Shown one piece after another: positions 4,134 through 26,161 of a DNA stretch of 38,310 bases. Each line of letters begins with the position of its first letter. Position 1 is the stretch's first letter. Below the pieces are notes generated by a model. It was not told the origin of the DNA. It saw only the letters and a program-made list of their open reading frames with translations, and made no database searches. Position numbers and translations under genes: made by a program. This stretch comes from a phage: sequence record PX946180.1; one strand, 5' to 3'.

Positions 4134-4227
4134 CTGAATGAATAACTATAGGTGAAAGCTGCATGAATACGCAGTTAGTAACCTATAGTTACTACCAGTC
4201 TAACCTACTGTTTTACAAGGAGTTTGG

Positions 4228-5165: not shown

Positions 5166-5269
5166 TAATAGACACAAAGGATATAGACTTAAGGTCTAAG
5201 ACATGTTAGTCAAAGACTATAGCCTCTTACACCATGGGGTCGACGATAGCTTAATCGATATTATTTCAA

Positions 5270-5450: not shown

Positions 5451-5636
5451 ACCACATCGAAACAACGGTGAAGACCAACACTGAAACGGTCTACCTGAAG
5501 TCTTCTGACTGAAGGGAATGCTCTTTAACAATCTGGATAACTCTTAATGTGCGCCGATAGCGACTAACTACAGGGTCTTTGAGTCTACACCTGAAGGCCC
5601 TGACTGATAGTCACTAACAACTGAGAGGATATAACT

Positions 5637-7164: not shown

Positions 7165-7187
7165 ACTTAACTATCACTATAGGACTC
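7165..7187 (+). promoter_or_regulatory. phage RNAP promoter directly upstream of the RNAP gene, +1 G at 7182
   Basis: TTAACTATCACTATAGGACTC; followed by GACTCAAGGTC motif. Confidence 0.65.
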
Positions 7188-7256: not shown

Positions 7257-9104
7257 ATGAGCGTCATCTCTATTGACAAACACGACTTCTCTGATGTGTC
7301 GAACGCCATTGAGCCGTTTAACCTGCTGGCTGACCACTACGGGCAAGACCTCGCAGTAAAGCAGCTTCAGCTTGAGCATGAGGCATACACTGAAGGCGAG
7401 CGACGTTTCATCAAGAACCTTGAGCGCCAGACTGAGCGCGGGGAACTGGCAGACAATCAGGTCGCCAAGCCTTTGATGCAGACTCTGGTCCCGACCATCG
7501 CTAAGGCTTTCCGTGAGTGGCATGAAGGCCCGGACGGTAAGTCCTCGACCTCTCGTCCAAGCGTAGCGTTCACCATGCTGAGCACTGACGAGAAGGCTGT
7601 CAAAGACCGCTCTCTGCTCATCTCTGCGGAGTCTGCTGCGGTCATCATACTGAAGGTCATTCTCAGCAAGCTGGTCAAGCCTGAAGGCATCCCGATAACT
7701 CCTATGGCGTCCGCGATAGGTCGAACACTGGAAGATGAAATCCGCTTTGGTCGCATCCGTGATCAGGAGAAGGAGCACTTCAAGAAGGCGATAGCTGAGA
7801 ACCTGAACAAGCGCGCAGGGGTATCCTACAAGAAAGCCTACATGCAAGCGGTTGAGACCTCCATGTTGGAGCAAGGCCAACTGGAAGATGCCTGGGGAAC
7901 TTGGAGTCCGACCGAGGCGGTCCATGTTGGCATCAAGATGCTTGAGATTGTCATCCAGTCTACTCAACTGGTAGAGCTTAAGCGTTATGGTGCTGGCAAT
8001 GCAGCGGCGGACGTTGAGATGGTCCACCTGTCAGACTTCTGGGTCAAGAAGATGGCTCAGCGTGGCTTCTCTCTTGCGGGAATCGCTCCAGTCTACCAGC
8101 CATGCGTAGTTCCGCCTAAGCCGTGGACCGGGGTGGTGGGTGGTGGGTACTGGGCTAAAGGCCGAAGACCACTACCACTGATTCGCTTAGGGTCTAAGTC
8201 TGCGGTGGCACGTTACGAAGATGTATACATGCCTGAAGTCTACGACGCTGTGAATATCATTCAGAATACACCTTGGAAAGTGAACAAGAAGGTTCTGAAC
8301 GTGGTGAACATGGTCGAGAAGCTGAACAACACGCCTATTGATGACATCCCTCAGATGGAACCGCTGAAGCCTGAGGACTATGCGGGTGAGACTGAAGAAG
8401 AACTTAAGGCATGGAAGAAAGCTGCTGCCGGTATCTATCGCCGCGAGAAGGCCCGACAGTCACGAAGATTGTCACTGAGCTTTATCGTTAACCAAGCGAA
8501 CAAGTTCTCTCAGTTCAAGGCTATCTGGTTCCCGTATAACATGGATTGGCGAGGTCGTGTCTACGCTGTCCCGATGTTCAACCCTCAGGGTAACGACATG
8601 CAAAAGGGACTCCTGACTCTGGCAGTCGGTAAGCCTATTGGTGCTGATGGTTTCAAATGGCTGAAGGTACGCAAGAAGGATACCACTCGTCTGAACCTGA
8701 TGTTCTTAGGGTCATTCAACCTTCAGCCTACAGTCAACAAAGGCGCGAAGAAAGAGCTTGACAAACACAAGCAGGAGTCAGGTATTAGCCCGAACTTCGT
8801 CCACTCACAAGATGGCAGTCACCTCCGCAAGACTGTAGTCCACACGCACCGCAAGTATGGCGTGATGTCGTTCGCAGTGATCCACGATAGCTTCGGGACC
8901 ATCCCGGCTGACGCTGAGTATCTGTTCCGTGGTGTCCGTGAGACGATGGTCGAGACCTACCGCGACAACGATGTGCTGCTTGACTTCTATGAGCAGTTTG
9001 AATACCAGCTTCATGAGAGCCAGCGCGACAAGCTGCCAGAGCTTCCGAAGAAAGGTGAACTGAATATCGAAGACATCCTGTCTTCAGACTTTGCATTCGC
9101 TTAA
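7257..9104 (+). CDS. T7-like single-subunit RNA polymerase with ~268-codon internal in-frame deletion (catalytic motifs A and B missing; probably non-functional)
   Basis: 615 aa versus 883 aa for T7 RNAP; N-terminal ~464 aa and C-terminal ~151 aa are collinear with T7 (promoter-binding domain, specificity loop, HKQESG..FVHSQDGSHLRK, IHDSFGT, terminal FAFA); junction GFKWLK/VRKKDTTRLNLMFLG at about 8664-8669; no DGSCSG or TLAYGS motif anywhere in the ORF. Confidence 0.85.
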   Translation: MSVISIDKHDFSDVSNAIEPFNLLADHYGQDLAVKQLQLEHEAYTEGERRFIKNLERQTERGELADNQVAKPLMQTLVPTIAKAFREWHEGPDGKSSTSRPSVAFTMLSTDEKAVKDRSLLISAESAAVIILKVILSKLVKPEGIPITPMASAIGRTLEDEIRFGRIRDQEKEHFKKAIAENLNKRAGVSYKKAYMQAVETSMLEQGQLEDAWGTWSPTEAVHVGIKMLEIVIQSTQLVELKRYGAGNAAADVEMVHLSDFWVKKMAQRGFSLAGIAPVYQPCVVPPKPWTGVVGGGYWAKGRRPLPLIRLGSKSAVARYEDVYMPEVYDAVNIIQNTPWKVNKKVLNVVNMVEKLNNTPIDDIPQMEPLKPEDYAGETEEELKAWKKAAAGIYRREKARQSRRLSLSFIVNQANKFSQFKAIWFPYNMDWRGRVYAVPMFNPQGNDMQKGLLTLAVGKPIGADGFKWLKVRKKDTTRLNLMFLGSFNLQPTVNKGAKKELDKHKQESGISPNFVHSQDGSHLRKTVVHTHRKYGVMSFAVIHDSFGTIPADAEYLFRGVRETMVETYRDNDVLLDFYEQFEYQLHESQRDKLPELPKKGELNIEDILSSDFAFA

Positions 9105-9116
9105 CAGGAGAGAGTT

Positions 9117-9317
9117 ATGAAATTTGTACACAAGAAGACCGGCGTTAATGGTGGGACTCAAATAGTGACCGTAACAGAGCACAATGGTAAGGGTCTGGTG
9201 AAGACCACGGTCATCCCTACAGAGCTGTCAAAGCGTCTTAACGTAACATTCAAGTGGCTGGTTAATCTGGTTAAGCAGACACACGAGCAAGCTCTTAAAG
9301 AGGAGGCTACCAAATGA
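9117..9317 (+). CDS. hypothetical early protein (66 aa)
   Basis: Tracker ORF with GGAGAGAG RBS; no recognised homolog; T7 has no gene between gene 1 and 1.1. Confidence 0.5.
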   Translation: MKFVHKKTGVNGGTQIVTVTEHNGKGLVKTTVIPTELSKRLNVTFKWLVNLVKQTHEQALKEEATK

Positions 9318-9395
9318 CAGGCCTACAGTTGCTGGCCTTGTGGCTGGGAGCACTCGCAGTATTCACTTTAATCCAACGCAGAAGAGGTTAACCCT

Positions 9396-9866
9396 ATGTT
9401 CGGTAAGTCAAAACTTGAAGCACAAATCGTAGAGTTGAGCATGAAGGTGGCATACTTGGAGCGAGCCGTAAAGGTCCGGGATAAGGACAACGAGAGACTG
9501 AAGGCTAAACTTGCTGAATCAGAGCGTAAGCGCCTAACGCCACCAGCGGCTGTAACTGTCAAGCGTATGGTCGGCATCAAGTTCAAGGAACTGTTCGACG
9601 GTAAGTATCAGCCCACTGAGTTCAAGATAGGTCTTGGAAAGTGTGGAAAGGTGGTTCACTACTTCGAGGTGACTAAGCGTGACTACCTGACGATTACCAT
9701 CCACCAGTACCACACAGACGGGTCATCTAAGGACTTTGAGTATCGACTTAGCGACATCGACGGTCGTATACAGTACGACTACGAGCCGATGCAGGTCTAC
9801 GGTGAGGAGGCAGAGCAGGAACGTATAGTCCAAGCCTTCCGCAACAGACCACGATTCGTACCCTAA
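9396..9866 (+). CDS. hypothetical early protein (156 aa), N-terminal coiled-coil
   Basis: Tracker ORF; GAGG RBS; charged heptad-like N-terminus (KLEAQIVELSMKVAYLERAVKVRDKDNERLKAKLAESERK); no recognised homolog. Confidence 0.6.
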   Translation: MFGKSKLEAQIVELSMKVAYLERAVKVRDKDNERLKAKLAESERKRLTPPAAVTVKRMVGIKFKELFDGKYQPTEFKIGLGKCGKVVHYFEVTKRDYLTITIHQYHTDGSSKDFEYRLSDIDGRIQYDYEPMQVYGEEAEQERIVQAFRNRPRFVP

Positions 9867-9884
9867 ACTATCACTATAGGATTA
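9862..9884 (+). promoter_or_regulatory. phage RNAP promoter (phi1.1-like), +1 G at 9879
   Basis: CCTAAACTATCACTATAGGATTA. Confidence 0.75.
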
Positions 9885-9928
9885 GACTCAAGGTCATGAC
9901 TAAAAGTCGTGGCCTTCATGATTAACCC
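9884..9928 (+). promoter_or_regulatory. R1.1-like RNase III processing element
   Basis: AGACTCAAGGTCATGACTAAAAGTCGTGGCCTTCATGATTAACCC; same position (between gene 1 and 1.1) and same core as recalled T7 R1.1. Confidence 0.55.
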
Positions 9929-9957
9929 TAAATAAACACTACTGGAGATTTAACCAC

Positions 9958-10137
9958 ATGTATCAGAACACTATCAACTTCGAGCGCATCCGTGAACGTC
10001 AACAGACTGAAGGCTACATCCCGAAGGGCCGCAAGCTGAACAAGACTAAGCGAGGCGGTGGTGTCAAGGGTGCTTTCCGCAACGCTGAAGGCAAAGACTC
10101 GCTGGTAAACCAAGAGAAGTATTTCGTAGGAGCATAA
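9958..10137 (+). CDS. gp1.1-like small basic protein (59 aa)
   Basis: GRKLNKTKR motif as in recalled T7 gp1.1; GGAG RBS; immediately precedes gp1.2 homolog. Confidence 0.65.
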   Translation: MYQNTINFERIRERQQTEGYIPKGRKLNKTKRGGGVKGAFRNAEGKDSLVNQEKYFVGA

Positions 10138-10141
10138 GGCT

Positions 10142-10405
10142 ATGGGCCGACTTTATAGTGGCAACATCAACGCTTTCAAAGCAGCGCGTAACAGACTTTA
10201 TCAGTTAGACTTCTTCGTGATACAGCAGGACTGGTACGACGCGCATTTTCGGAAAGAGTGTATGAGACTTCAAGTCGAGGACCGAGCTGGTGACATCTTC
10301 GCTCTTAAGACCTTCGCACACTACGACGAAGACGTACTGTACAACACTGCAACCGACTTCCTTAACGGTCTCGCTGACCAACTAGACACATGGAGCAAAT
10401 CATAA
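10142..10405 (+). CDS. gp1.2-like inhibitor of host dGTPase
   Basis: 87 aa; MGRLYSGN..AFKAA.N.L.QLD...DWYDA..RK.C.RL..EDR.G matches recalled T7 gp1.2. Confidence 0.85.
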   Translation: MGRLYSGNINAFKAARNRLYQLDFFVIQQDWYDAHFRKECMRLQVEDRAGDIFALKTFAHYDEDVLYNTATDFLNGLADQLDTWSKS

Positions 10406-11472
10406 TGACAACGACTATCAAAACTAACCCACACCGAGCTGTAGATTACTCTGAGTCTGGCGTTAAGAAAGCGCTGGAAGCTGCTGGGTCGCTGGAAGCT
10501 GAAGTGAAGTACGATGGTGTCCGGTTTAATCTTCCGGTCTTCCCTACTGGTGAGACTCAATGGTTGAGCCGTGAGTCCAAAGAGCTTCCAGCGCTTCAGC
10601 ATCTGAAGTCAGAACGTGGGAGTCCTACCGAATTAACAAACCGTGGAGACTGGCGATGGTTCCTTAAACAGGCTGGCTACGAAGGTACGGGCCTGATGAT
10701 TGACGGCGAGGTCATGGTTCCTGCAACCGACTTCAACACTTCCTCAGGTCTAATCCGTACCATGTGGTCAGACACTAAGAACTACGCTTGGAATGGCAAC
10801 CCCGATGCTGACATCGACACCAAGAAGAAGCATAAGGTCCCTTTCCATCTGGCAACCGACCACATCCGCGTGGTTGTCTACGGGGTCATCGACCTTAACG
10901 TCATCCTCGACCCGAAAGCCGAAGGTCCCATCCATAGCGTCACACGCCTGAAGGCCGAAGCTATCGTCCCTCTCCTCCAGAAATACTTCCCGGAAATCGA
11001 CTGGGTTCTGTCTGAGTCACACACGGTCTATGACCTTGAGTCGCTCAACTCCCTGTACGAAGAGAAGCGTCTGGAAGGACACGAGGGTCTGGTAGTCAAG
11101 GACCCACTTGGTAAATATAAGCGTGGCAAGAAGTCAGGCATGTGGAAAATGAAGCCTGAGGAGACCATCGACGGGACCGTGTGTGGACTCGTGTGGGGGA
11201 CTCCGGGTAAGGCTAACGAAGGCAAGGTAATTGGCTTCGAGGTTCTGCTTGAGGATGGCATGGTGGTTAACGCCTGTGGTCTGACTGAAGAGCAGAAGGA
11301 TGAGTTTACGGAAGCCTGTAACACTGATACATATATTCTCGGTGGAATCAATCCATACGAAGGCTGGCAGTGCGAAGTTCTCTTCATGGAGCGGTTCCCT
11401 GATGGCTCCCTTCGCCACCCTAGCTTCAAGTGCTGGCGTGGAACGGAAGACAATCCAACCGTTAAGAGCTAA
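10390..11472 (+). CDS. ATP-dependent DNA ligase (T7 gp1.3-like); true start may be the ATG at 10405
   Basis: Adenylation motif EVKYDGVR, IKTNP, KPEE.IDG.V.GLVWGT.G.ANEGKVIGFEVLLE and C-terminal DGSLRHPSF..RGTEDNP all match recalled T7 ligase. Confidence 0.95.
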   Translation: MEQIIMTTTIKTNPHRAVDYSESGVKKALEAAGSLEAEVKYDGVRFNLPVFPTGETQWLSRESKELPALQHLKSERGSPTELTNRGDWRWFLKQAGYEGTGLMIDGEVMVPATDFNTSSGLIRTMWSDTKNYAWNGNPDADIDTKKKHKVPFHLATDHIRVVVYGVIDLNVILDPKAEGPIHSVTRLKAEAIVPLLQKYFPEIDWVLSESHTVYDLESLNSLYEEKRLEGHEGLVVKDPLGKYKRGKKSGMWKMKPEETIDGTVCGLVWGTPGKANEGKVIGFEVLLEDGMVVNACGLTEEQKDEFTEACNTDTYILGGINPYEGWQCEVLFMERFPDGSLRHPSFKCWRGTEDNPTVKS

Positions 11473-11483
11473 CTAAACGTCAA

Positions 11484-11520
11484 CCCAGTGGTCTTCGGAC
11501 TGCTGGGTTTCTTTGCTTTG
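11484..11520 (+). terminator. rho-independent terminator, T7 TE equivalent
   Basis: 10-bp stem CCCAGTGGTC/GACTGCTGGG (two G-U pairs) with TTCG tetraloop followed by TTTCTTTGCTTTG; located just after the ligase gene as T7 TE is. Confidence 0.8.
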
Positions 11521-11554
11521 TGCTAGCAAGCTATCGTCTGGGCCACCAGCATGA

Positions 11555-11577
11555 CCTAAGCTATCACTATAGGACAA
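11555..11577 (+). promoter_or_regulatory. phage RNAP promoter, +1 G at 11572
   Basis: CCTAAGCTATCACTATAGGACAA. Confidence 0.75.
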
Positions 11578-11605
11578 CCCTAACTTCGACCTAAGGAGGC
11601 CGACC

Positions 11606-11860
11606 ATGTTTAAGAACTTAATGTTCAATCGTTATACCAGTACATTCCACCTGTCTCACAACCCGTTCGCTTGCATTAAGCGTAACGAGAAGCTGGGCTA
11701 CTTCGGGAAGGCCGTTAAGCTGTCACCTACAGTCTTCGCTCTCATTACTCCGGGCAAAGCTGAAGAGGCTCGCCAGAAGCGTGAGACCAACGTACCTGTG
11801 GTCTACACCAAGTGGCCTCGCGTTCGTCTGTTCGTTGAGTTCGTGAAGGAGGTGTTCTGA
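11606..11860 (+). CDS. gp1.6-like protein
   Basis: 84 aa; C-terminal WPRVRLFVEFVKEVF resembles recalled T7 gp1.6 end FPFVRLLLKRIKEVF. Confidence 0.7.
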   Translation: MFKNLMFNRYTSTFHLSHNPFACIKRNEKLGYFGKAVKLSPTVFALITPGKAEEARQKRETNVPVVYTKWPRVRLFVEFVKEVF

Positions 11861-12432
11861 TGACTCCTTATGATAATATGATCATCAAGCTAATCGATAT
11901 GAACGACGGTAAGCCAGACCATTTATATAACTGTTCCTTCGAGTGTGCTGGAGTTCCTTGTAACATCTGCCCCGCTAAGGATGATGACGATATGACCTTA
12001 GGTGAAATCCGAGCGATGGACCCACGTAAGCCCCATCTGAATAAACCAGAGGTAACTCCCCCAGATGAACAGCCTTCCACTGAGTCACACAGCTGCGAAA
12101 GTATGTGCAACTGTGAGCGGGACTATGATACAAGCGATGGACATGCCTTGGATTGTACTATCCACAACGCCACTGCCCCAGTAAATACAATCGAAGGTGT
12201 CACTAAGCCTTCCCATTACATGCTGTTCGACGACATTGAGGCCATCGAAGTGATTGCCCGTTCAATGACTCGTGAACAGTTCAAAGGGTACTGCTTCGGT
12301 AACGTCCTGAAGTATCGACTCCGGGCTGGTAAGAAGTCCGAGCTGGCTACTATGGAGAAGGACCTGAACAAAGCAGCCTTCTATCAGGAGCTGTTCGACC
12401 TACATAAAGGTAAGTGCTATGCTGCCGAGTGA
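11860..12432 (+). CDS. gp1.7-like nucleotide kinase
   Basis: 190 aa; Cys-rich N-terminus and C-terminal FKGYCFGNVLKYRLRAGKK motif as in recalled T7 gp1.7. Confidence 0.75.
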   Translation: MTPYDNMIIKLIDMNDGKPDHLYNCSFECAGVPCNICPAKDDDDMTLGEIRAMDPRKPHLNKPEVTPPDEQPSTESHSCESMCNCERDYDTSDGHALDCTIHNATAPVNTIEGVTKPSHYMLFDDIEAIEVIARSMTREQFKGYCFGNVLKYRLRAGKKSELATMEKDLNKAAFYQELFDLHKGKCYAAE

Positions 12433-12510
12433 GTGGTGCCGGGAGATGTATGAGAAGACCCTCAACCCGGACTACATTACGTTATACAACCAATGGAAGG
12501 AGCGCGGTTT

Positions 12511-12669
12511 ATGACTGAGGTTGAGAAGAAGTACATCGTGGAGCTTGAGGGTCGCGTTCAGTCCTTCGAGGTTCCGGTGTACGCAAAATCTCTTGAAGAG
12601 GCTACCCTGAAGTCCCAAGAGTATGAGGACGCTGGGTTTGTGGTCGGACGGATTCGTCCTGAGACCTAA
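12511..12669 (+). CDS. gp2-like inhibitor of host RNA polymerase
   Basis: 52 aa; [15 protein letters not shown]...[10 protein letters not shown] matches recalled T7 gp2 (HSFEVPIYAETLDEA...AGFEVTRVRP). Confidence 0.8.
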
Positions 12670-12687
12670 ACTATCACTGTAGGACAG
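12665..12687 (+). promoter_or_regulatory. phage RNAP promoter variant (phi2.5-like), +1 G at 12682
   Basis: CTAAACTATCACTGTAGGACAG, one substitution in the TATA core. Confidence 0.6.
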
Positions 12688-12726
12688 ACGTCCAGTTCGT
12701 AACTTTAAATTAGGAGATTTACACCG

Positions 12727-13425
12727 ATGGCTAAAGAGCAACTGAAGACTTTCACCACTCCGGTAGCTGGTATCGTTGAGCCTTACGCATGGCTGAACAA
12801 AGCAGACACCAAGTTCAACGAGCGTGGTGAACATAAGGTTAACCTGACTTTCAGTCTGGATGACCCGAAGGTCCGTAAGATGATTGATGTCTTACAGAAG
12901 ATTCACGACGATGCGTATGCGAAAGCACTCGCAGACCACGAGAAGAACCCACCTCAGGTTAAGCGTGGCAAGAAGCCTATTGAACCACGAGAAGGCGACA
13001 TGCCGTGGATTGAGAATGGTGACGGTACTGTTACCCTTAAGTTTAAATGCTTTGCGTCTTACCTGAAAGACGGCAAGTCCGAGCCTATCGTATTACGGTT
13101 CTACGACACAGATGCTAAACTCATCCGTGACGTCCCGAATATTGGCGCTGGGTCTAAGCTGAAGGTCAAGTTTAAAGTCCTGCCGTTCAAGTGGAACGCT
13201 GCGACTGGTGCAAGCGTTAAGCTCCAGCTTGAGTCCTGCCTTCTGGTAGAACTGAAGGAGTGGAAAGGTGATGGTACTGGTGGCGATGGTGGCTGGGGTG
13301 ATGATGAAGACCTTGGTACTGGCTACAAAGCGTCAACCGATGGTGACTTCAATGGCGATAGTGGCTTCGGTGAAGATGCCGAGGGTGGTGATGACTCTGA
13401 GTCCGGTGGCGATTACGACTTCTAA
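12727..13425 (+). CDS. single-stranded DNA-binding protein (T7 gp2.5-like)
   Basis: 232 aa; GDMPW..NGDGT.T.KFKC.AS, GSKLKVK, ASVKLQLES motifs and acidic C-terminus ending in F, as in recalled T7 gp2.5. Confidence 0.95.
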   Translation: MAKEQLKTFTTPVAGIVEPYAWLNKADTKFNERGEHKVNLTFSLDDPKVRKMIDVLQKIHDDAYAKALADHEKNPPQVKRGKKPIEPREGDMPWIENGDGTVTLKFKCFASYLKDGKSEPIVLRFYDTDAKLIRDVPNIGAGSKLKVKFKVLPFKWNAATGASVKLQLESCLLVELKEWKGDGTGGDGGWGDDEDLGTGYKASTDGDFNGDSGFGEDAEGGDDSESGGDYDF

Positions 13426-13427
13426 TC

Positions 13428-13880
13428 GTGGCTGCATGGACACAAAAACGGGGGCACTCTGTGGGTGCCTACCGCTCTGGACTTGAGGCCAAGAACCAGC
13501 AGTGGCTGGAGCAGAATGGCGTCAAAGCGGAGTACGAAAGCCATTATATCAACTATGTGATTCCGGCTTCCGACCACAAGTACACACCAGACTTCATCCT
13601 TCCGAACGGAATCATCGTCGAGACCAAAGGTATCTTCGACAGTGAGGACCGTAAGAAGCACCTTCTGGTACGAGAACAGCACCCAGAGTTAGACATCCGG
13701 TTCGTGTTCTCAAGTTCCCGCTCCAAGCTATACAAAGGGTCTCCGACCACGTATGGCGCATGGTGCGAAAAGAACGGATTTAAGTTTGCCGACAAGTTCA
13801 TCCCGGTTGAGTGGCTGCGAGAGGCGACTGTACGTCTGCCTTCAGGCATACTCATTCCAAAGAAGAAAGGAGTTAAGTAA
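13428..13880 (+). CDS. endonuclease I, Holliday junction resolvase (T7 gp3-like)
   Basis: 150 aa; YVIPAS.H.YTPDF.LPNGI.VETKG...DRKKHLL.REQHPELDIR.VFSSSR.KLYKGSPT.YG matches recalled T7 gp3. Confidence 0.95.
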   Translation: MAAWTQKRGHSVGAYRSGLEAKNQQWLEQNGVKAEYESHYINYVIPASDHKYTPDFILPNGIIVETKGIFDSEDRKKHLLVREQHPELDIRFVFSSSRSKLYKGSPTTYGAWCEKNGFKFADKFIPVEWLREATVRLPSGILIPKKKGVK

Positions 13881-14371
13881 TGAGCAAGAAGTTTAAACTG
13901 TCAGTAAATACGTGTGGCTGGCCTCGTGGGACCATCGTTACCAAGTGTGAGAAGGATCCCAGCCCATATCCGCACATGACCCTAGTTGAGTGCCACACTC
14001 CAGGCACCTACAAAAACGGGTCTAACGGCCACAATACTCAGCCTGATGGTATGTGGGGAGCATGGGTCTATGATCATGAACTTGAGGAAATAAAGCAGGA
14101 AGAGAAACTCACTGGTGTACAGACCACTCAGGTCCTGCCAGCCTCAAGCGTCCCTCCTGTCACCGTTAAACGCGAAGTCCTGACCATCGACAAGATTGGT
14201 GTAGGACAAACGTTCATCGTCCATGGTAAACCTGAGGAAGTTTACGTGAAGATTAGCAACTCACACGTCTTCAACCATAAGCGTCTCCAGATGCACACCA
14301 CGGATGCACAGCGCTTCACCCAGCACCTGAATCTGGTGGTAGTAGAATTGGTGGTGTACAATGGTAAGTAA
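13880..14371 (+). CDS. hypothetical protein (163 aa) inserted between endonuclease I and lysozyme
   Basis: Tracker ORF; start overlaps gp3 stop; no T7 counterpart at this position and no recognised domain. Confidence 0.6.
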   Translation: MSKKFKLSVNTCGWPRGTIVTKCEKDPSPYPHMTLVECHTPGTYKNGSNGHNTQPDGMWGAWVYDHELEEIKQEEKLTGVQTTQVLPASSVPPVTVKREVLTIDKIGVGQTFIVHGKPEEVYVKISNSHVFNHKRLQMHTTDAQRFTQHLNLVVVELVVYNGK

Positions 14372-14819
14372 GGTACAGTTCAACCCACGGTCCCGGACTG
14401 ACGCTATCTTCGTTCACTGTTCGGCTACCAAGCCAGAGATGGACATCGGGGTAGAGACCATCCGTATGTGGCACAAGCAGCAAGGCTGGCTGGACGTAGG
14501 CTACCACTTTATCATCAAGCGCGATGGTACTGTTGAAGAGGGTCGCCCTGTCAACGTAGTAGGGTCACACGTTAAGGACTGGAACTCACGGTCTGTAGGC
14601 GTCTGCCTTGTAGGTGGAATTGATGCTAAGGGTAAGTTTGAAGCTAACTTCACTCCGGCCCAGATGGACTCCCTGCGCAACAAGCTGGCTGACCTGAAGG
14701 TCCTGTATCCTCAGGCAGAAATCAAAGCACACCATGACGTAGCACCGAAGGCGTGTCCAAGTTTTGACTTGCAACGCTGGCTATCTACCAACGAACTGAG
14801 GACTTCCGACCATGGATAA
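14361..14819 (+). CDS. lysozyme / N-acetylmuramoyl-L-alanine amidase (T7 gp3.5-like)
   Basis: 152 aa; TDAIFVHCSATKP, WLDVGYHFIIKRDGTVE.GR, GVCLVGGID.KGKF.ANFTPAQM and HH.VAPKACPSFDL match recalled T7 lysozyme. Confidence 0.95.
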   Translation: MVSKVQFNPRSRTDAIFVHCSATKPEMDIGVETIRMWHKQQGWLDVGYHFIIKRDGTVEEGRPVNVVGSHVKDWNSRSVGVCLVGGIDAKGKFEANFTPAQMDSLRNKLADLKVLYPQAEIKAHHDVAPKACPSFDLQRWLSTNELRTSDHG

Positions 14820-14904
14820 AATAGACTTTATGCTTATCGTTCTGTTATCAGGAGCAATCACCTTCGTAGGATGGTGGTTCTTCCCTGAACACTTTGAAAT
14901 CTAA
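14812..14904 (+). CDS. small hydrophobic peptide (30 aa)
   Basis: ATG overlaps lysozyme stop, GAGGA 10 nt upstream; sequence MDKIDFMLIVLLSGAITFVGWWFF; below tracker threshold. Confidence 0.35.
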   Translation: MDKIDFMLIVLLSGAITFVGWWFFPEHFEI

Positions 14905-14918
14905 AGGAGAACAACTTA

Positions 14919-15134
14919 ATGATTAAACTCATCGAATTTCTTGGTCGTCTGGTGGTGCGTGGCTATCGTCGGGCTGCGGCTATGGAACGAAAGGTAGCAG
15001 CGAAGACTGCTGACGGTGCGGCTGATGCTGCTGCTCTGGCTGACAAACTGACCATCGCGTCACTGGAAGCTGGCATGAAGGCACGTCAAGCTGACACCAA
15101 AGCTGACCAGTTGGCTCAGTTCTTCAAAGACTAA
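14919..15134 (+). CDS. small conserved hypothetical protein (71 aa)
   Basis: Tracker ORF with AAGGAG RBS; N- and C-terminal motifs (LIEFLGRLVVRGY...QLAQFFKD) resemble a small T7 middle-gene product I recall only imperfectly. Confidence 0.55.
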   Translation: MIKLIEFLGRLVVRGYRRAAAMERKVAAKTADGAADAAALADKLTIASLEAGMKARQADTKADQLAQFFKD

Positions 15135-15152
15135 ACTATCACCTTAGGGATG
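15130..15152 (+). promoter_or_regulatory. degenerate phage RNAP promoter (phi4-like), +1 G at 15147
   Basis: CTAAACTATCACCTTAGGGATG, two mismatches to consensus in the -5 to -1 region. Confidence 0.45.
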
Positions 15153-15199
15153 GGACCATGAGTCCTGTCCCTTTGTTCGCATTTGTGATTAAGGAGTGA

Positions 15200-16903
<1,704 letters not shown>

Positions 16904-16956
16904 CTGGGAGTCATTCGACGAGTGGCAAGAACTCAACGATTCAGACAGGAGAAATA

Positions 16957-17121
16957 ATGTTAAGAAAACTTAAAGCTAGCTACCATCGGTTCATGTACAA
17001 ATGGTGGAGCGATGAAGCAACCTGCCTGTCCAACATTCTGGGAGACCAAAGGTTCGACTCTAAGGCATGGAAGAAAGCTAACCGTAAGTTTATGTACCAC
17101 TTCTTGCGTACAGACTTCTAG
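16957..17121 (+). CDS. small hypothetical protein (54 aa; tracker ORF 16882..17121 trimmed)
   Basis: AGGAGA RBS 6 nt upstream of ATG 16957; lies between gene 4 and gene 5. Confidence 0.45.
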   Translation: MLRKLKASYHRFMYKWWSDEATCLSNILGDQRFDSKAWKKANRKFMYHFLRTDF

Positions 17122-17125
17122 GTCT

Positions 17126-17168
17126 AGACTCAAGGTCATTCACAGCGAGTGGCCTTTATGATTAGACT
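17126..17168 (+). promoter_or_regulatory. R1.1-like RNase III processing element upstream of DNA polymerase
   Basis: AGACTCAAGGTCATTCACAGCGAGTGGCCTTTATGATTAGAC. Confidence 0.5.
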
Positions 17169-17184
17169 AAACGGAGGATTAACC

Positions 17185-19356: not shown

Positions 19357-19520
19357 TGGCTAAAACTTATAGTGAGCAGGAGGTCAAAGACTTGATGCGG
19401 TCAGCTTGGTGGTGTGGACACGAGGAGTCTCGTTATAGTCCAAACCTCAGTGGTTCATGCAGTCGAGACATCCGTGAAATTCTTAAAGACCATAACGAAG
19501 AAGACGAAGGAGAAATCTAA
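19356..19520 (+). CDS. small hypothetical protein (54 aa)
   Basis: ATG overlaps DNAP stop (TAATG); trimmed from tracker ORF 19338..19520. Confidence 0.4.
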   Translation: MAKTYSEQEVKDLMRSAWWCGHEESRYSPNLSGSCSRDIREILKDHNEEDEGEI

Positions 19521-19792
19521 TGGCTATTACTAAACGCTTGACCTGTAAGTTTGACATGAAGATCGTCTTTACGTCTGAGGACGTTGAGTCATACGCTCTT
19601 GAGCTGGTGGAGCTGACCAAGTGTTATGTCTCCGGTGAGAAAATGGATGGTATGGCCCGTAAGCTGGTAGAGACTGCTGTAGAGCATGGGGTCGAAGCTG
19701 CCATTGAGCTGCACCTGAAGTCTGTTCTGGCGTCAAAACTGAAAGACGAGATGCAAGAGGTCTACAACATCAGCACGAGGTTCAAGCAATGA
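19520..19792 (+). CDS. gp5.5-like protein (assigned by position)
   Basis: 90 aa tracker ORF immediately upstream of the gp5.7 homolog; similarity to T7 gp5.5 not confirmed. Confidence 0.5.
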   Translation: MAITKRLTCKFDMKIVFTSEDVESYALELVELTKCYVSGEKMDGMARKLVETAVEHGVEAAIELHLKSVLASKLKDEMQEVYNISTRFKQ

Positions 19793-19998
19793 GTGAATAC
19801 TTACGGGTCCTAGCGGCCCTTAAGTCCTGCCCGAAGACCTTCCAGTCCAACTATGTGCGCAACAACGCTGCACTGGTGGCTGAGGCTGCGAGTCGTGGAC
19901 ATCTGAGCTGCCTGTCTATGGACGGGCGTAACAACGGTGCGTGGGAGATTACCGCTGCTGGCACCAAGTTCCTGAACCAACACGGAGGCTGTCTATGA
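19789..19998 (+). CDS. gp5.7-like protein
   Basis: 69 aa; LKSCPKTFQSNYVRNNA.LVAEAASRGH.SCL...GRN.GAWEITA.GT.FL...GGC nearly identical to recalled T7 gp5.7. Confidence 0.9.
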   Translation: MSEYLRVLAALKSCPKTFQSNYVRNNAALVAEAASRGHLSCLSMDGRNNGAWEITAAGTKFLNQHGGCL

Positions 19999-20231
19999 GT
20001 GAACTGGATTTACTGAAGAAGTTTGACGAGCTTATGTCACTCCTTAATGGTGAAGAGAACTCAATGGCTGAAGAGTTCCGCGAGGCTTTAGCAGCTAAGT
20101 TAGACCGTGCCGCTGATGATCGACTCTGGCGGGAGTGCTTGGAGTCTGGCGGGGTTGACAACTGGTCTTGGTTCTCTGAGTCACTGTCTGAAGGTGGATA
20201 CTACAAGGAGGACGACGATGACTTCGAATAA
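19995..20231 (+). CDS. acidic hypothetical protein (78 aa) at the gene 5.9 position
   Basis: ATG overlaps gp5.7 stop; strongly acidic, ends EDDDDFE; no sequence match to recalled T7 gp5.9. Confidence 0.5.
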   Translation: MSELDLLKKFDELMSLLNGEENSMAEEFREALAAKLDRAADDRLWRECLESGGVDNWSWFSESLSEGGYYKEDDDDFE

Positions 20232-21087
20232 GAAGATAGCTCTGGTTCTGGATGGTGACTACTTAGTGTTTTCGTCTATGGCTGCCGCAGAGGACGAGAC
20301 AGACTGGGGTGATGACATCTGGACCCTTATCTGCGACCATGAGAAGGCTCGTCGTATCCTTGAGAACACCATCGCTGAAATCGTTAAGAAGCGTAAGGCG
20401 TGGAAAGACGCTAAGATTGTGATGTGCTTTACTGACGATAACAACTGGCGTAAGGATGTTCTACCTACCTATAAGGCCAACCGTAAAGGTTCCCGCAAGC
20501 CTGTAGGTTACAAGAAGTTCGTAGCAGAAGTAATGGCTGACCCACGGTTCAACAGCTTCCTTCGTCCTACGCTTGAGGGTGATGACTGTATGGGTATCAT
20601 CGGGACCAGACCTCAGATTGTCGGATGTGACCATGCTGTTCTGGTGTCCTGCGACAAGGACTTCAAGACCATCCCAAACTGTGAGTTCTTCTGGTTAACC
20701 ACTGGTGAAATCCTGAGTCATACGACTGCCGAGGCAGACTACTGGCACATGGAGCAGACCATCAAGGGTGACACTACAGATGGCTACGGTGGTATTCCGG
20801 GGATGGGTGAGGACACCACTCGTGCGTTCCTTGACGAGCCGTACTACTTCGTGCAGGAGAGCCGTGAGCTTAAGACTGGTAAGAACAAAGGCCAGATTAA
20901 GACCGAATGGAAGAAGTACCCGAAGCGTGAAGACATGACGCTGTGGGACTGCATGGTTACACTGGCTGCTAAGGCTGGCATGACCGAGGATGAACTCCTG
21001 GTCCAAGCTCAGGTCGCCCGTATTTGTCGAGCCTCCGACTACGACCCTAAGTCCAAGGAGGTCATCCTGTGGACACCATCCATGTAG
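20218..21087 (+). CDS. 5'-3' exonuclease (T7 gp6-like)
   Basis: 289 aa from ATG 20218 (tracker ORF 20107 starts upstream in frame); WRK...YKANRK, PVGY, LEGDD.MG, SCDKDFKTIPNC, QTIKGD.TDGY, GKNKGQ and TLWDC match recalled T7 gp6. Confidence 0.95.
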   Translation: MTSNKKIALVLDGDYLVFSSMAAAEDETDWGDDIWTLICDHEKARRILENTIAEIVKKRKAWKDAKIVMCFTDDNNWRKDVLPTYKANRKGSRKPVGYKKFVAEVMADPRFNSFLRPTLEGDDCMGIIGTRPQIVGCDHAVLVSCDKDFKTIPNCEFFWLTTGEILSHTTAEADYWHMEQTIKGDTTDGYGGIPGMGEDTTRAFLDEPYYFVQESRELKTGKNKGQIKTEWKKYPKREDMTLWDCMVTLAAKAGMTEDELLVQAQVARICRASDYDPKSKEVILWTPSM

Positions 21088-21213
21088 TCTACTGGGCAGG
21101 ACTTCTGGCCCTTTACTGTATGTACGAGTGGTTCGGGTCGAACAACCGTCCTAAACACTGAGTCTAACCGATAGTCATATCCTATCAATCCAACAGTCAT
21201 CCATAGGTGAAAC

Positions 21214-21236
21214 ACTAAACTATCACTATAGGGACT
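21214..21236 (+). promoter_or_regulatory. phage RNAP promoter (phi6.5-like), +1 G at 21231
   Basis: CACTAAACTATCACTATAGGGACTT. Confidence 0.8.
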
Positions 21237-21297
21237 TTAGGACCTAAGATATGACTATAAGATAGACTTTAGTCTTAACTTAAAGAGGAGATTCAAG

Positions 21298-21570
21298 ATG
21301 GCGATTAATGCTATTGAAAACGTTGTTAAGCAGTTACAGGAAGAAAGACTTGATGTCCCTAACATCTCCCAGTCTGCCATCCAGTTCCTGCACGTATTGT
21401 TCAACGCAAGCTACGCTGAGAAGATGGGAGCTATTAGTCTCCTCAAGCAGCAAGGCTACAGCGATGCGTTCATTGCCGGGTTCATCAAGGGTCTCCAGTA
21501 TTGTTCTGACACTCTCGACTCTGCGATTGCTATGCGTCGTGAGCTGAAAGATACCGTTCAGTTCGATTAA
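21298..21570 (+). CDS. hypothetical protein (gene 6.5 position)
   Basis: 90 aa tracker ORF with AGAGGAGA RBS; first gene after the promoter at 21214. Confidence 0.6.
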   Translation: MAINAIENVVKQLQEERLDVPNISQSAIQFLHVLFNASYAEKMGAISLLKQQGYSDAFIAGFIKGLQYCSDTLDSAIAMRRELKDTVQFD

Positions 21571-21584
21571 CTGTAGGAGGGACT

Positions 21585-21809
21585 ATGTGTTTCAGTCCAA
21601 AGATTAGCACTCCGAAGCCTTCGGTCCAAGCACCTGAACCAGCACCTCTGAGTGAGGAAGTTGCGTCAGTTGACATCGGGGCTGAATCGGATGTGGACAC
21701 CAATGAGACCAAGGGTATCAAAGACCTTAAGGTTAAGAAGGAGTCTGCACCAAAAGATAAATCGTCAGTGAGCCGCGCTATGCGAGCCTCTGGCGTAAAC
21801 ATGGGGTAA
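21585..21809 (+). CDS. gp6.7-like virion protein
   Basis: 74 aa; N-terminal MCFSPKI.TPK and EPAPL..EV.SV match recalled T7 gp6.7. Confidence 0.85.
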   Translation: MCFSPKISTPKPSVQAPEPAPLSEEVASVDIGAESDVDTNETKGIKDLKVKKESAPKDKSSVSRAMRASGVNMG

Positions 21810-21813
21810 GACA

Positions 21814-22218
21814 ATGCTACCATATCTCAACTCACGCGAAGGTCGCCACATGTGTGCCTGTCGCCTCTGGGAAGACGGGCAGTCTAACTTCAAGTCATTC
21901 GAGGACTTCAAGGCTCATACTTACCGTATGGCTGACGAGTTCGATGGTGAAGAGTACACAATCTACGATGTCGCAGGTCAACCAGTAGCGTATCTCTACA
22001 TGCTGGCTACAGCATCTTGGCACCGACCGACTCCCGGTCTTGACCTTTCAATCGTCGCTATTCGTCGTGACTCGCAGTCCTCCCGCAAGGTTCTTGAGAC
22101 TGTCAGGCATATCATAGACGAAGAGTGCAAGCGTTGGGGTCTTGGCTGGTATTCTCGTGTCAAGCATGTTTCCGGGTCGGTAGACATCGTAACAACTAAG
22201 GAGATTAATCGTGGGTAA
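21814..22218 (+). CDS. gp7-like protein (assigned by position and size)
   Basis: 134 aa tracker ORF between the gp6.7 and gp7.3 homologs. Confidence 0.6.
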   Translation: MLPYLNSREGRHMCACRLWEDGQSNFKSFEDFKAHTYRMADEFDGEEYTIYDVAGQPVAYLYMLATASWHRPTPGLDLSIVAIRRDSQSSRKVLETVRHIIDEECKRWGLGWYSRVKHVSGSVDIVTTKEINRG

Positions 22219-22459
22219 ATCAATCAGTAAGGCTTTCAAGAAAGTGGTGAAAAGTACGTTAGGGACAGTGGGTCTTGGCTCTGACGATGCGCCTAAGGTT
22301 GTTGAGGCTCAGACCCCAGCAGCACCAGTGGAGGTACCGAACGATAAAGTGGAAGATGTGGATACCGAAGCAACCGCATCTGACGAGAAGAAAGTGAAGC
22401 GTTCCGGTAAGCGTAGCCTTCAGGTCTCTCGTACCTCTGGTGGCGGTATTTCTATTTAA
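22211..22459 (+). CDS. gp7.3-like tail/virion protein (GTG start)
   Basis: 82 aa; MGK.. start and C-terminal GKRSLQVSRTSGGGISI match recalled T7 gp7.3 (..SLSVARSSGGGINI); AAGGAG RBS 8 nt upstream. Confidence 0.8.
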   Translation: MGKSISKAFKKVVKSTLGTVGLGSDDAPKVVEAQTPAAPVEVPNDKVEDVDTEATASDEKKVKRSGKRSLQVSRTSGGGISI

Positions 22460-22470
22460 GGAGGTGACGA

Positions 22471-24039
22471 ATGGCTGAACGTGAAGGGTTCGCTGCTGAA
22501 GGAGCCAAAGCGGTCTATGACCGACTGAAGAACGGTAGACAGCCATATGAGACACGCGCTCAGAACTGTGCTGCTGTCACTATCCCGTCACTGTTTCCTA
22601 AGGAGTCCGATAACTCGTCTACTGAGTATACAACTCCGTGGCAAGCTGTAGGTGCTCGCTGCTTGAACAACTTGGCTGCAAAGCTGATGTTGGCGTTATT
22701 CCCTCAGTCACCGTGGATGCGACTAACAGTCTCCGAATATGAGGCCAAGACCTTGAGTCAAGACTCAGAGGCTGCTGCTCGTGTTGACGAAGGGCTGGCT
22801 ATGGTCGAGCGTGTATTGATGGCCTACATGGAGACCAACAGTTTTCGTGTGCCATTGTTCGAAGCTCTGAAGCAGCTTATCGTCTCCGGTAACTGTCTGC
22901 TCTACATTCCAGAGCCTGAACAGGGAACCTACAGTCCTATGCGAATGTACCGCTTAGTGTCTTACGTTGTTCAACGTGATGCTTTCGGTAATATCTTGCA
23001 GATTGTGACTCTCGACAAGGTAGCGTTCAGTGCTCTACCGGAAGACGTGAAGTCACAACTCAACGCAGACGACTATGAGCCTGACACCGAGCTGGAAGTG
23101 TATACGCACATCTATCGTCAGGACGACGAGTATCTACGCTATGAGGAAGTTGAAGGCATTGAGGTAGCAGGGACCGAGGGTTCCTACCCACTTACTGCAT
23201 GTCCATACATCCCGGTACGAATGGTTAGACTTGACGGTGAAGACTATGGTCGTTCTTATTGCGAGGAGTATCTGGGAGACCTGAACTCGCTGGAGACGAT
23301 TACAGAAGCTATCACCAAAATGGCTAAGGTAGCCTCCAAGGTGGTTGGCCTCGTTAACCCGAACGGTATCACGCAACCTCGTCGTCTGAACAAGGCGGCT
23401 ACAGGTGAGTTCGTGGCTGGTCGCGTTGAGGACATCAACTTCCTGCAACTGACGAAGGGTCAGGACTTTACGATTGCTAAGTCGGTAGCTGACGCTATCG
23501 AGCAACGTTTAGGCTGGGCCTTCCTTCTTAATAGTGCTGTTCAGCGTAATGCCGAGCGGGTCACTGCTGAAGAGATTCGTTATGTTGCTGGCGAACTGGA
23601 GGCGACCTTAGGTGGCGTGTACTCAGTACAATCACAAGAGCTTCAGTTACCTATAGTCCGTGTGCTGATGAACCAGCTTCAGTCTGCTGGCATGATTCCT
23701 GACCTCCCGAAAGAAGCGGTAGAGCCTACGGTCTCCACTGGTCTGGAAGCGTTAGGTCGTGGTCAAGACTTAGAGAAGCTGACTCAGGCAGTCAACATGA
23801 TGACCGGGCTACAGCCTCTGCAACAGGACCCAGACATTAACTTGCCGACCCTGAAGCTGCGACTGCTGAATGCCTTAGGCATTGACACCGCTGGTCTGCT
23901 GCTGACTCAGGACGAGAAGTTACAACGTATGGCTGAACAATCAGCTCAAGGAGCTGTGGTCAACGGTGCGTCTGCTGCTGGTTCTACTATGGGTGCTGCT
24001 GTAGGTCAGGGAGCTGGTGAGGACATGGCTCAAGCCTAA
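22471..24039 (+). CDS. portal (head-tail connector) protein (T7 gp8-like)
   Basis: 522 aa; size and position after gp7.3 as in T7 (536 aa); AGGAGG RBS. Confidence 0.9.
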   Translation: MAEREGFAAEGAKAVYDRLKNGRQPYETRAQNCAAVTIPSLFPKESDNSSTEYTTPWQAVGARCLNNLAAKLMLALFPQSPWMRLTVSEYEAKTLSQDSEAAARVDEGLAMVERVLMAYMETNSFRVPLFEALKQLIVSGNCLLYIPEPEQGTYSPMRMYRLVSYVVQRDAFGNILQIVTLDKVAFSALPEDVKSQLNADDYEPDTELEVYTHIYRQDDEYLRYEEVEGIEVAGTEGSYPLTACPYIPVRMVRLDGEDYGRSYCEEYLGDLNSLETITEAITKMAKVASKVVGLVNPNGITQPRRLNKAATGEFVAGRVEDINFLQLTKGQDFTIAKSVADAIEQRLGWAFLLNSAVQRNAERVTAEEIRYVAGELEATLGGVYSVQSQELQLPIVRVLMNQLQSAGMIPDLPKEAVEPTVSTGLEALGRGQDLEKLTQAVNMMTGLQPLQQDPDINLPTLKLRLLNALGIDTAGLLLTQDEKLQRMAEQSAQGAVVNGASAAGSTMGAAVGQGAGEDMAQA

Positions 24040-24057
24040 ACTATCACTATAGGAACA
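24035..24057 (+). promoter_or_regulatory. phage RNAP promoter (phi9-like), +1 G at 24052; transcript starts with a 9-bp stem
   Basis: CCTAAACTATCACTATAGGAACAACG; inverted repeat GGAACAACG (24052-24060) / CGTTGTTCC (24091-24099). Confidence 0.8.
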
Positions 24058-24128
24058 ACGTCTGGTCTACAATTTGTAGGTTTCTAGTCCCGTTGTTCCT
24101 ACCATTTCAATCAAAGGAGAATGACTCA

Positions 24129-25013
24129 ATGTCTCAATCAGTTTATGCCGAGTTCGGCGTTAGCTCTAATGCAATCACTGGTTCCGTTGAGGACCTGAAC
24201 GAACACCAGAAGTCTATGCTTGAACAGGACGTAGCTGTTCGTGATGGCGATGACGCTATTACCTTCAAGCAACTGGAAGCCGAGAACGAAGAGGCGACCG
24301 AAGAAGACGAGAACGTCGAAGAGACTGAAGGTGAAGACGACCACGAGTCCGATGACGAAGAGTCAGAGACCGATGGTGAGCAGCCTGAGTTCATCGAACT
24401 TGGTGATGCACCGAAAGAGCTGACCGAAAGTGTCGCCGCTCTTGATGAAAACGAAGCCGCATTCGACGACATGGTGTCTTCTGCTGTAGAAGCTGGCAAG
24501 GTCACTGCTGATGAAATTACCGCTATCAAGGCCGAATACGCCAAGGACGGTAAGCTGTCTGACGCATCCTACGCTAAGTTGCAGGAAGCAGGTTACACCA
24601 AGCGTTTCGTAGATTCGTTTGTCCGTGGTCAGGAAGCTCTGGCTGAACAGTACGCTGCTGGTGTGGTTCGCTATGCTGGTGGTGCTGAACAGTTTAATCG
24701 CATCCTGTCACACCTTGAGTCTAACGACCCGTCAACTCGTGAAGCACTGGAAGCTGCTATCGTTCGTAAGGACATTGCTACTACCAAAGCTCTGCTGAAT
24801 CTGGCTGGCAAGACTCTGGGTAAAGCTGTAGGCGTCAAACCTCAGCGTACCATCACCACTCAGGCTAAACCTGTGGTCGCACCTAAGGCTCCTCAGACCG
24901 AAGCATTCAGCTCCAAGGCTGACATGATTAAGGCTATGAGTGACCCGCGATACCTGCGTGACGCTAAGTACACGATGGAAGTTCGCGCTAAGGTAGCCGC
25001 CTCAAGCCTGTAG
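24129..25013 (+). CDS. capsid assembly scaffolding protein (T7 gp9-like)
   Basis: 294 aa from ATG 24129 (AAGGAG 9 nt upstream; tracker ORF starts at an upstream TTG); highly acidic middle; SYAKL.E.GYTK.F.DS..RGQEAL.EQY and KAMSDPRY match recalled T7 gp9. Confidence 0.92.
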   Translation: MSQSVYAEFGVSSNAITGSVEDLNEHQKSMLEQDVAVRDGDDAITFKQLEAENEEATEEDENVEETEGEDDHESDDEESETDGEQPEFIELGDAPKELTESVAALDENEAAFDDMVSSAVEAGKVTADEITAIKAEYAKDGKLSDASYAKLQEAGYTKRFVDSFVRGQEALAEQYAAGVVRYAGGAEQFNRILSHLESNDPSTREALEAAIVRKDIATTKALLNLAGKTLGKAVGVKPQRTITTQAKPVVAPKAPQTEAFSSKADMIKAMSDPRYLRDAKYTMEVRAKVAASSL

Positions 25014-25014
25014 G

Positions 25015-25037
25015 ACTAAACTATCACTATAGGGAGA
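25015..25037 (+). promoter_or_regulatory. phage RNAP late promoter (phi10-like), +1 G at 25032; 5' stem-loop in the leader
   Basis: GACTAAACTATCACTATAGGGAGACCA, best match to the T7 class III TATAGGGAGA start; leader GGGAGACC...GGTTTCCC can form an 8-bp stem as in the T7 phi10 transcript. Confidence 0.85.
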
Positions 25038-25139
25038 CCAAGAGAAAGACTCAAGGTTTCCCTATTACTTCAGTCCATACGGATTGGGCATACAGTAAGT
25101 AATAAACTTTATCTTTCAATTGTATAGGAGAATTATCAT

Positions 25140-25839
25140 ATGGCAAACGTTCCGGGTCAGAAAATTGGTACAGACCAAGGTAAAGGCAAATCCAGTTCCG
25201 ACGCTAATGGCTCTCCTGTGTAACCTCCCGGCTGCATCCAACGAGAACATTGCCGGTCTGGGCACTGCGTCAGTACTTGAAGTTGGTACTAAAGCCGACC
25301 TGAACACTCCGGCTAAGCTGGGTGAAGCAATCATCGGTCAACTGACCATTGCTCGTGCGAAGCTGACCTCCAACTACGTTCCTGCTGGCGACCGTTACTT
25401 CTACACCACGCCGGACAACTACTCTGCAATCCTCGCGGCTCTGATGCCGAACGCTGCCAACTATGCTGCGCTGATTGACCCAGAGACTGGTAACATCCGT
25501 AACGTGATGGGCTTCGTTGTTGTTGAAGTCCCGCATCTGGTGCAGGGTGGTGCTGGTGAGACCCGTGGTGACGATGGCATCACTATCGCTTCCGGCCAGA
25601 AACACGCATTCCCGGCGACTGCTGCTGACGATGTTAAAGTTGCTATGGACAACGTTGTGGGTCTGTTCTCTCACCGTTCTGCTGTGGGTACTGTGAAGCT
25701 GCGTGACTTGGCGCTGGAACGTGACCGTGACGTCGATGCTCAGGGCGACCTGATTGTTGGTAAGTACGCTATGGGTCACGGCGGCCTGCGTCCAGAAGCG
25801 GCAGGCGCACTGGTTTTCACAGCGGCGCTGGGGGGTTAA
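25140..25839 (+). pseudogene. major capsid protein gene (gene 10A), disrupted: first 16 codons and last ~205 codons present, ~120 central codons missing, junction out of frame
   Basis: ATG 25140 with RBS encodes MANVPGQKIGTDQGKG (matches the recalled T7 gp10 N-terminus) then stops at 25221-25223 after 27 codons; the +1 frame from about 25213 encodes LCNLPAASNENIAGLGTAS... to the stop at 25839, collinear with T7 gp10A residues ~145-345; only ~810 nt separate the phi10 start site from the capsid stop. Confidence 0.8.
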
Positions 25840-26102: not shown

Positions 26103-26105
26103 TTG

Positions 26106-26148
26106 AAACCCCTTGGGTGCCTTCGGGTGCTTGAGGGGTTTTTTTTGC
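26106..26148 (+). terminator. rho-independent terminator, T7 Tphi equivalent
   Basis: AACCCCTTGGGTGCCTTCGGGTGCTTGAGGGGTTTTTTTT: GC-rich hairpin followed by a run of eight T; directly after the capsid gene as T7 Tphi is. Confidence 0.85.
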
Positions 26149-26161
26149 TTAAGGAGGTCCT

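Follow-up and report, generated by a model that had tools for sequence, protein, structure and literature searches.

How does a T7-like phage genome that appears able to make neither an RNA polymerase nor a capsid protein come to be assembled with every other core gene in place? The question is raised by sequence record PX946180.1, a stretch of 38,310 nt analyzed here at its full length (the window), an E. coli phage that megablast places in Kayfunavirus (K1F-like; Autographiviridae, the T7 family). An original prediction had described an in-frame deletion in the RNA polymerase gene and a frameshifting deletion in the capsid gene of an otherwise intact genome, and had offered three origins for them: a helper-dependent defective genome, a contig drawn from a mixed population, and deliberate engineering. 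Both lesions are confirmed, only these two genes are damaged, and of the three origins the first two are viable and engineering is the least supported. We tentatively read the contig as real deletion alleles in an uncultured Kayfunavirus population, that is, as a recent helper-dependent defective genome, most probably with both lesions; a defective genome is the most likely origin, ranked above a sequencing artefact, with an engineered phage least likely. Among known classes, the window belongs to the deletion-type defective genomes of T7-like phages; a defective or mixed-population origin is plausible, and engineering is unlikely.

The lesion in the polymerase gene is described by three features:

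7257 to 9104, plus strand: RNA polymerase remnant of 615 amino acids in place of 893 (blastn, protein alignment, Pfam).
8668 to 8670, plus strand: polymerase deletion junction, GAAGGTA/CGCAAG (the slash marks the join), bringing Val471 next to Arg750 at a codon boundary with 1 nt of microhomology.
8644 to 8654, plus strand: surviving copy of an 11-nt direct repeat, CTGATGGTTTC, whose second copy is found in intact relatives.

The polymerase open reading frame (ORF) thus encodes 615 amino acids, where the protein of every relative has 893. By blastn against MZ234021, window position 8668 corresponds to reference position 13881 and window position 8670 to reference position 14717, and a MAFFT alignment of 120 homologues displays a single in-frame gap over columns 472-749 (278 of 893 codons), a loss of exactly 834 nt. 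The flanks of the junction are 835 nt apart in 28 of 28 related loci and 1 nt apart in the window. Aligned to the T7 protein, the loss covers approximately residues 463-739 of T7 RNA polymerase. In T7 this segment comprises the palm insertion, Asp537 of the catalytic site, and the fingers, whose O-helix carries Lys631 and Tyr639; what survives in the remnant is the promoter-binding domain at the N-terminus, the thumb, the specificity loop, the C-terminal palm with Asp812, and the C-terminal FAFA. Of the 448 positions of the Pfam RNA_pol catalytic-domain profile, only 284-376 are matched by the remnant. Because the catalytic palm and the fingers are deleted, no active phage RNA polymerase can be made, and the remnant product is catalytically dead.

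The junction itself needs no untemplated base, since the GTA codon at its left edge occurs naturally in 4 of the 28 relatives. In intact relatives the copies of CTGATGGTTTC sit 14-18 nt upstream of each polymerase breakpoint, a similarity reached by about 0.5% of random position pairs (local score 11; empirical p about 0.005), and the presence of the repeat beside both breakpoints is suggestive of a real misalignment event, with the join lying outside the repeat. At the protein level, a peptide repeat (DGFxW) brackets the deleted block exactly, with GADGFKWLKV at about residues 462-471 (window 8637-8669) and TPDGFPVWQEY at about residues 738-749; it is encoded partly by the 11-nt DNA repeat, and its right-hand copy is deleted in the window.

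The capsid gene has lost a stretch over codons 23-139, together with its reading frame, behind intact expression signals:

25020 to 25037, plus strand: phi10-type promoter, ACTATCACTATAGGGAGA, intact, preceding the capsid gene.
25126 to 25131, plus strand: ribosome-binding site AGGAGA of the capsid gene, 3' of the phi10-type promoter.
25140 to 25223, plus strand: remnant of the capsid frame from its own start codon, with 22 native codons, the junction, 5 frameshifted codons, and a stop.
25205 to 25206, plus strand: capsid deletion junction, GACGCT/AATGG, with 350 nt lost, no microhomology, and a frameshift.
25207 to 25839, plus strand: C-terminal capsid remnant, residues 140-349, out of frame, with a native internal Met first and the native stop (25839) last.

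By blastn, window position 25205 corresponds to reference position 31235, and 25206/25207 to the base or bases just before codon 140, so that the sequence leaps from codon 22 to one base before codon 140 with a net loss of 350 nt. The promoter, the ribosome-binding site, and the ATG at 25140 are all intact, and translation from that ATG gives 27 amino acids, MANVPGQKIGTDQGKGKSSSDANGSPV, and then a stop. Only positions 81-279 of the 279-position Pfam Gp10A-like profile are matched by the remnant, and the internal Met codon at 25207 has no ribosome-binding site in front of it. With the N-arm, E-loop, and spine-helix region deleted and the frame broken, capsid protein cannot be produced. The N-terminal third of the capsid protein and the catalytic core of the polymerase are both gone, which is the loss of essential coding that marks a defective genome.

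The rest of the genome is in good order, as had been predicted. Judged by tblastn with 60 annotated reference proteins, all core genes other than those for polymerase and capsid are full length and uninterrupted, including ligase, SSB, endonuclease I, lysozyme, primase-helicase, DNA polymerase, exonuclease, portal, and scaffold, as well as tail tubular proteins A and B, the internal proteins, holin, and both terminase subunits. We considered whether the missing polymerase and capsid segments had been relocated; tblastn finds no copy of them elsewhere in the window. Regulatory elements, described as well preserved in the original prediction, have indeed been kept:

7170 to 7183, plus strand: phage-type promoter core before the polymerase gene, kept in 8 of 8 relatives examined.
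26105 to 26150, plus strand: T-phi-like terminator after the capsid unit, a 17-bp stem and then a T run, intact.

The promoter core ACTATCACTATAGG is present in 8 exact and 3 near copies, all on the plus strand, with 0.26 expected by chance, and the sites hold the same relative positions as in relatives. The core differs from that of T7 at positions -8 to -12, which set polymerase specificity, so the usual helper strains that supply T7 polymerase would fail to complement it. The core at 7170-7183 is perfect and lies about 75 nt upstream of the polymerase gene; its placement implies that gene 1 of Kayfunavirus would be under positive autoregulation, having a phage promoter of its own, whereas gene 1 of classical T7 is read by the host polymerase only. 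From the terminases to the early genes (871-5643) there are no large gaps relative to a complete relative, and the cis signals for packaging and replication appear to be kept; the stretch that follows gene 1, the site of replication origins in T7-type phages, is retained, as is the terminal-repeat and packaging region. With every cis element and every gene outside the two lesions intact, the two missing functions could be supplied in trans.

The similarity and the gene order of the window are those of the genus. Its first 25 kb are 92-93% identical over 82-86% of the query to dozens of Escherichia, Salmonella, Citrobacter, and Klebsiella isolates (megablast), its late region is about 95% identical at the nucleotide level over 94% of the query to the nearest records, and the genus threshold for Kayfunavirus (Studiervirinae) is about 70% genome-wide nucleotide similarity. 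Gene order is of the T7 type and collinear with that of relatives. The phage polymerase gene expected in the genus is present, with 278 codons gone, including those for the catalytic Asp and the O-helix, and the window is a damaged member of Kayfunavirus rather than a nonmember. Two features concern the contig ends:

38184 to 38310, no strand: terminal repeat copy of positions 1-127, an exact 127-nt identity that is an assembler overlap and not biological.
36692 to 38183 continuing at 1 to 857: tailspike of 782 amino acids, intact, spanning the artificial contig ends and whole once circularized.

The 127-nt overlap is what a de Bruijn-graph assembler run at k=127 leaves when its path closes in a circle, and hence marks a short-read assembly with 38,183 bp of unique sequence; the description as a 38-kb T7-like genome therefore stands as to type and not as to 38.3 kb of unique sequence, as bases 1-127 recur. 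There are 0 ambiguous bases in the window, and restoring 834 and 350 nt to the 38,183 bp gives 39,367 bp, the usual size for Kayfunavirus. The closest contigs in Logan, ENA, and IMG are approximately 92-96% identical in the polymerase-junction region, with no near-identical parent found among them, and the breakpoints of both deletions are accordingly defined against relatives only. A comparison with 50,697 phage records gave no close relative for the C-terminal beta-helix receptor-binding part of the tailspike (window 37340-38183 and 1-857), the single match being a weak one of 173 nt at 76% to an Enterobacter phage; judged from this novel domain, the phage appears to be uncultured.

Neither lesion was found in any relative. 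The extra 834 or 350 nt are present in all of the approximately 195 phage records that cover each junction region, and the best 120 polymerase homologues retrieved with the 615-residue query from 5.8 billion clustered proteins are all 893 amino acids long (120/120). Polymerase loci from IMG/VR (80 in number) are full length save two cut by a contig end, the full-length ones matching from residue 1 (4 or 8 in three loci) to residue 893. Junction k-mers of both lesions are absent from IMG/VR, JGI metagenomes, and GTDB genomes, and megablast with the junction regions as queries yields no second case of either among phages, plasmids, or E. coli genomes. On these comparisons both lesions appear to be unique to this contig, and the lesion type to be rare, occurring in fewer than about 1 in 300 assemblies. 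Rarity, combined with the occurrence of two lesions in one contig, makes a shared cause at the level of the sample a better account than two separate accidents of the assembler.

To the original prediction the damage also looked non-random, as it strikes the two genes most often supplied in trans in T7 systems. This argument is post hoc: most of a T7-like genome is essential, and two deletions placed at random would often both fall in essential genes.

The remnants bear no trace of age. Over the same columns, the polymerase remnant has 1 private amino-acid change, compared with a mean of 0.87 in functional homologues; both of its halves have identical nearest relatives, and no secondary stops or frameshifts are found in the remnants. 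Since the surviving polymerase sequence shows no decay, the lesions are probably very recent, if they are real at all. An old pseudogene lineage is ruled out by the single private change and by the nearest relatives shared between the halves, and there is no signal of two known strains joined chimerically at the polymerase junction.

Could the deletions instead have been made in the library or by the assembler, the real genome being intact? Under this explanation amplification chimeras (arising, for example, from multiple-displacement amplification or heavy polymerase chain reaction on scant template) were routed into the circular path. Several observations fit: the contig was built from short reads on a de Bruijn graph, public data contain no second instance of the lesions, the damaged genes are as free of decay as if truly intact, a doubly defective genome is biologically awkward, and two lesions in one library are what an artefact-prone preparation could give. 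Assembly repeat collapse or gap closing, for which we required both breakpoints to share a direct repeat of about k-1 bases, or else 10 nt or more of overlap where they join, can be rejected: the join overlaps are 0-1 nt and no repeat nearby is longer than 11 nt, too short for graph collapse or for SPAdes-type gap closing. Because overlaps of 0-1 nt cannot make a join in a k=127 (or k=21) graph or through a 10-nt gap closer, the sequenced molecules carried the joins, and true deletion genomes or amplification chimeras are the remaining sources. Against chimeras, random chimeric reads are individually rare and normally pruned, and, as general knowledge has it, amplification chimeras are mostly inversions and usually have several nucleotides of microhomology, whereas the joins here are direct and near-blunt; moreover, 0 of approximately 400 related assembled genomes carries such a lesion. 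We regard an artefact of library or assembly as possible, and as less probable than a real defective genome.

Two further routes to the joins were rejected. Repeat slippage does not account for the polymerase join, which the 11-nt repeat adjoins and does not contain, and inspection by eye found no restriction site common to the breakpoints, as a deletion based on restriction sites would need. If real, the deletions would have arisen through illegitimate, essentially homology-free joining.

As a helper-dependent defective genome, the window could be propagated as follows. Alone in a cell, it would express its early region only, by means of the host polymerase, and would yield no progeny. In the company of a co-infecting intact relative, the helper's polymerase would read the unchanged promoters and the helper's capsid protein would build the heads; the genome, 3% shorter, would still be packaged if concatemers are cut in the T7 manner, site specifically and not by the headful. 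At high multiplicity of infection it would behave as a cheater, or defective interfering genome. A speculative gain from the polymerase deletion is earlier entry of the downstream origin, T7-type entry being coupled to transcription, and the capsid deletion may be a passenger.

A number of points weigh against a defective genome of this kind. The capsid deletion shows no evident advantage in cis, and neither junction occurs in any other public sequence searched, so that independent replication is lacking. Spontaneous deletions of T7 usually form between short direct repeats, and the present junctions are nearly blunt. There is little documentation of natural defective interfering genomes for tailed lytic phages, and we found none in the literature.

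In a variant of this explanation both deletions are real and reside on different molecules of a mixed population, with or without wild type, the contig being chimeric in phase. The 16.5 kb between the lesions far exceeds any short-read insert, and the assembly would carry no phasing information. Each single mutant would keep the gene missing from the other, which would permit mutual complementation in co-infected cells, and foot-and-mouth disease virus offers a known case of defective genomes that complement each other (PMC8877645). That the assembly runs cleanly in a circle across the two junctions nevertheless suggests, as far as assembler pruning behavior goes, that the deletion alleles were not minor; two alleles each above 50% would force some molecules to carry both, and the arrangement is without precedent in tailed phages. 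We consider it unlikely that the lesions sat on separate molecules. Somewhat less likely again is a natural defective interfering genome as the major allele of an environmental or gut population, or a mutually complementing pair in which one partner lacks the polymerase segment and the other the capsid segment.

Deliberate engineering, in the form of a non-propagating phage whose host supplies polymerase and capsid protein, has some attractions: both genes are commonly supplied in trans in T7 technology (general knowledge), the polymerase deletion is in frame and exactly on codon boundaries, and strategies with essential-gene-deficient T7 exist (PMC12664982). The junctions, however, have no scar, recombination site, marker, cassette, or foreign DNA, with native sequence joined directly, and every segment of the window has a phage-type explanation. 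Neither deletion removes a whole gene, and the two do not follow one design, the first preserving the frame and the second breaking it. The backbone differs by 5-8% from all deposited phages, with a tailspike domain new among cultured phages. Exact-protein look-ups for the truncated polymerase, gp16, portal, and nine other products matched only the 188-residue tail tubular A (gp11), and 0 of 9 large window proteins were present in a collection of 15 billion proteins. This polymerase gene is in no plasmid or complete E. coli genome of the collections searched. The promoter difference from T7 at -8 to -12, partly a matter of general knowledge, would make T7 helper strains unsuitable, and nothing specific on engineered Kayfunavirus double deletions was found in the literature. 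We therefore hold engineering to be very improbable.

Returning to the helper-dependent defective genome, the closest precedents come from T7 itself. As PMC8877645 summarizes Yin 1993 (J Bacteriol 175:1272) and Kong & Yin 1995, spontaneous gene 1 deletions appear in T7 at about 1e-8, and the deleted genomes overtake the wild type when polymerase is supplied in trans; shorter T7 variants displace longer ones in continuous culture. Like the window, those T7 genomes have an internal polymerase deletion with the rest intact, and they are packaged normally with polymerase in trans; unlike the window, which is from an uncultured Kayfunavirus and has capsid damage as well, they come from laboratory hosts expressing T7 polymerase. 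Because no polymerase-supplying host is known and the capsid gene is also damaged, a co-infecting phage is the only plausible supplier. The same paper cites Studier and Scearce, Pierce & Masker 1991 for T7 deletion mutants that form between short direct repeats. These resemble the window in losing hundreds of base pairs, and the window has its 11-nt repeat by both polymerase breakpoints; they differ from it in that the window's joins lie outside the repeat with 0-1 nt of microhomology, as in illegitimate end-joining or template switching.

Defective interfering particles of vesicular stomatitis virus and influenza virus, and the miniphages of filamentous phages, are like the window in having lost essential coding, kept cis signals, and come to need a helper, whereas classical defective interfering genomes have lost most of the genome for a large replication gain and the window loses 3% and keeps about 50 genes. 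Engineered T7 phages lacking gene 1 or complemented for capsid, with their helper strains, display vectors, and defect-complementation editing (PMC12664982), have the same two functions supplied in trans; they are built in T7 itself with defined, usually whole-gene, deletions or cassettes, none of which is seen in the window. Within Kayfunavirus, full-length and internally deleted genomes of Hafnia phage Ca coexist in one lysate, as observed by high-throughput sequencing (PMC8861465), the deletion there being of 397 bp and of a homing-endonuclease gene, whereas those of the window hit core essential genes.

The polymorphic 397-bp element of that Hafnia phage Ca lysate lies between the lysin and large-terminase ORFs (PMC8861465), and the window has an HNH (HNH_3) endonuclease ORF at 1937-2374, likewise between an Rz-like lysis gene and the large terminase, whose start it overlaps. 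A 156-residue homologue of T3 gene 1.05 is found at 9396-9866, inserted relative to MZ234021, where it splits a 38-residue ORF into halves (9340-9396 and 9860-9922), with a phage promoter directly after it at 9867; present in only some relatives, it looks like a mobile or mosaic module on this sequence comparison. The gp1.7-like (DUF3310) ORF at 11860-12432 encodes 190 amino acids, compared with 112-156 in relatives, and has a divergent N-terminal extension.

If the joins prove to be artefacts, the case is a useful warning that essential genes may be silently truncated by internal deletions even in a contig flagged as complete and circular. Real deletions would show that helper-dependent cheaters can dominate, at least for a time, populations of lytic tailed phages that are not part of an engineered laboratory system, which bears on how "complete" circular viral contigs are read, on estimates of infectious versus total particles, and on the quality control of phage-therapy lysates. 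Should a natural defective interfering genome or a complementing pair be the true explanation, this would be the first case of natural cheater dynamics in Autographiviridae to come from a metagenomic assembly.

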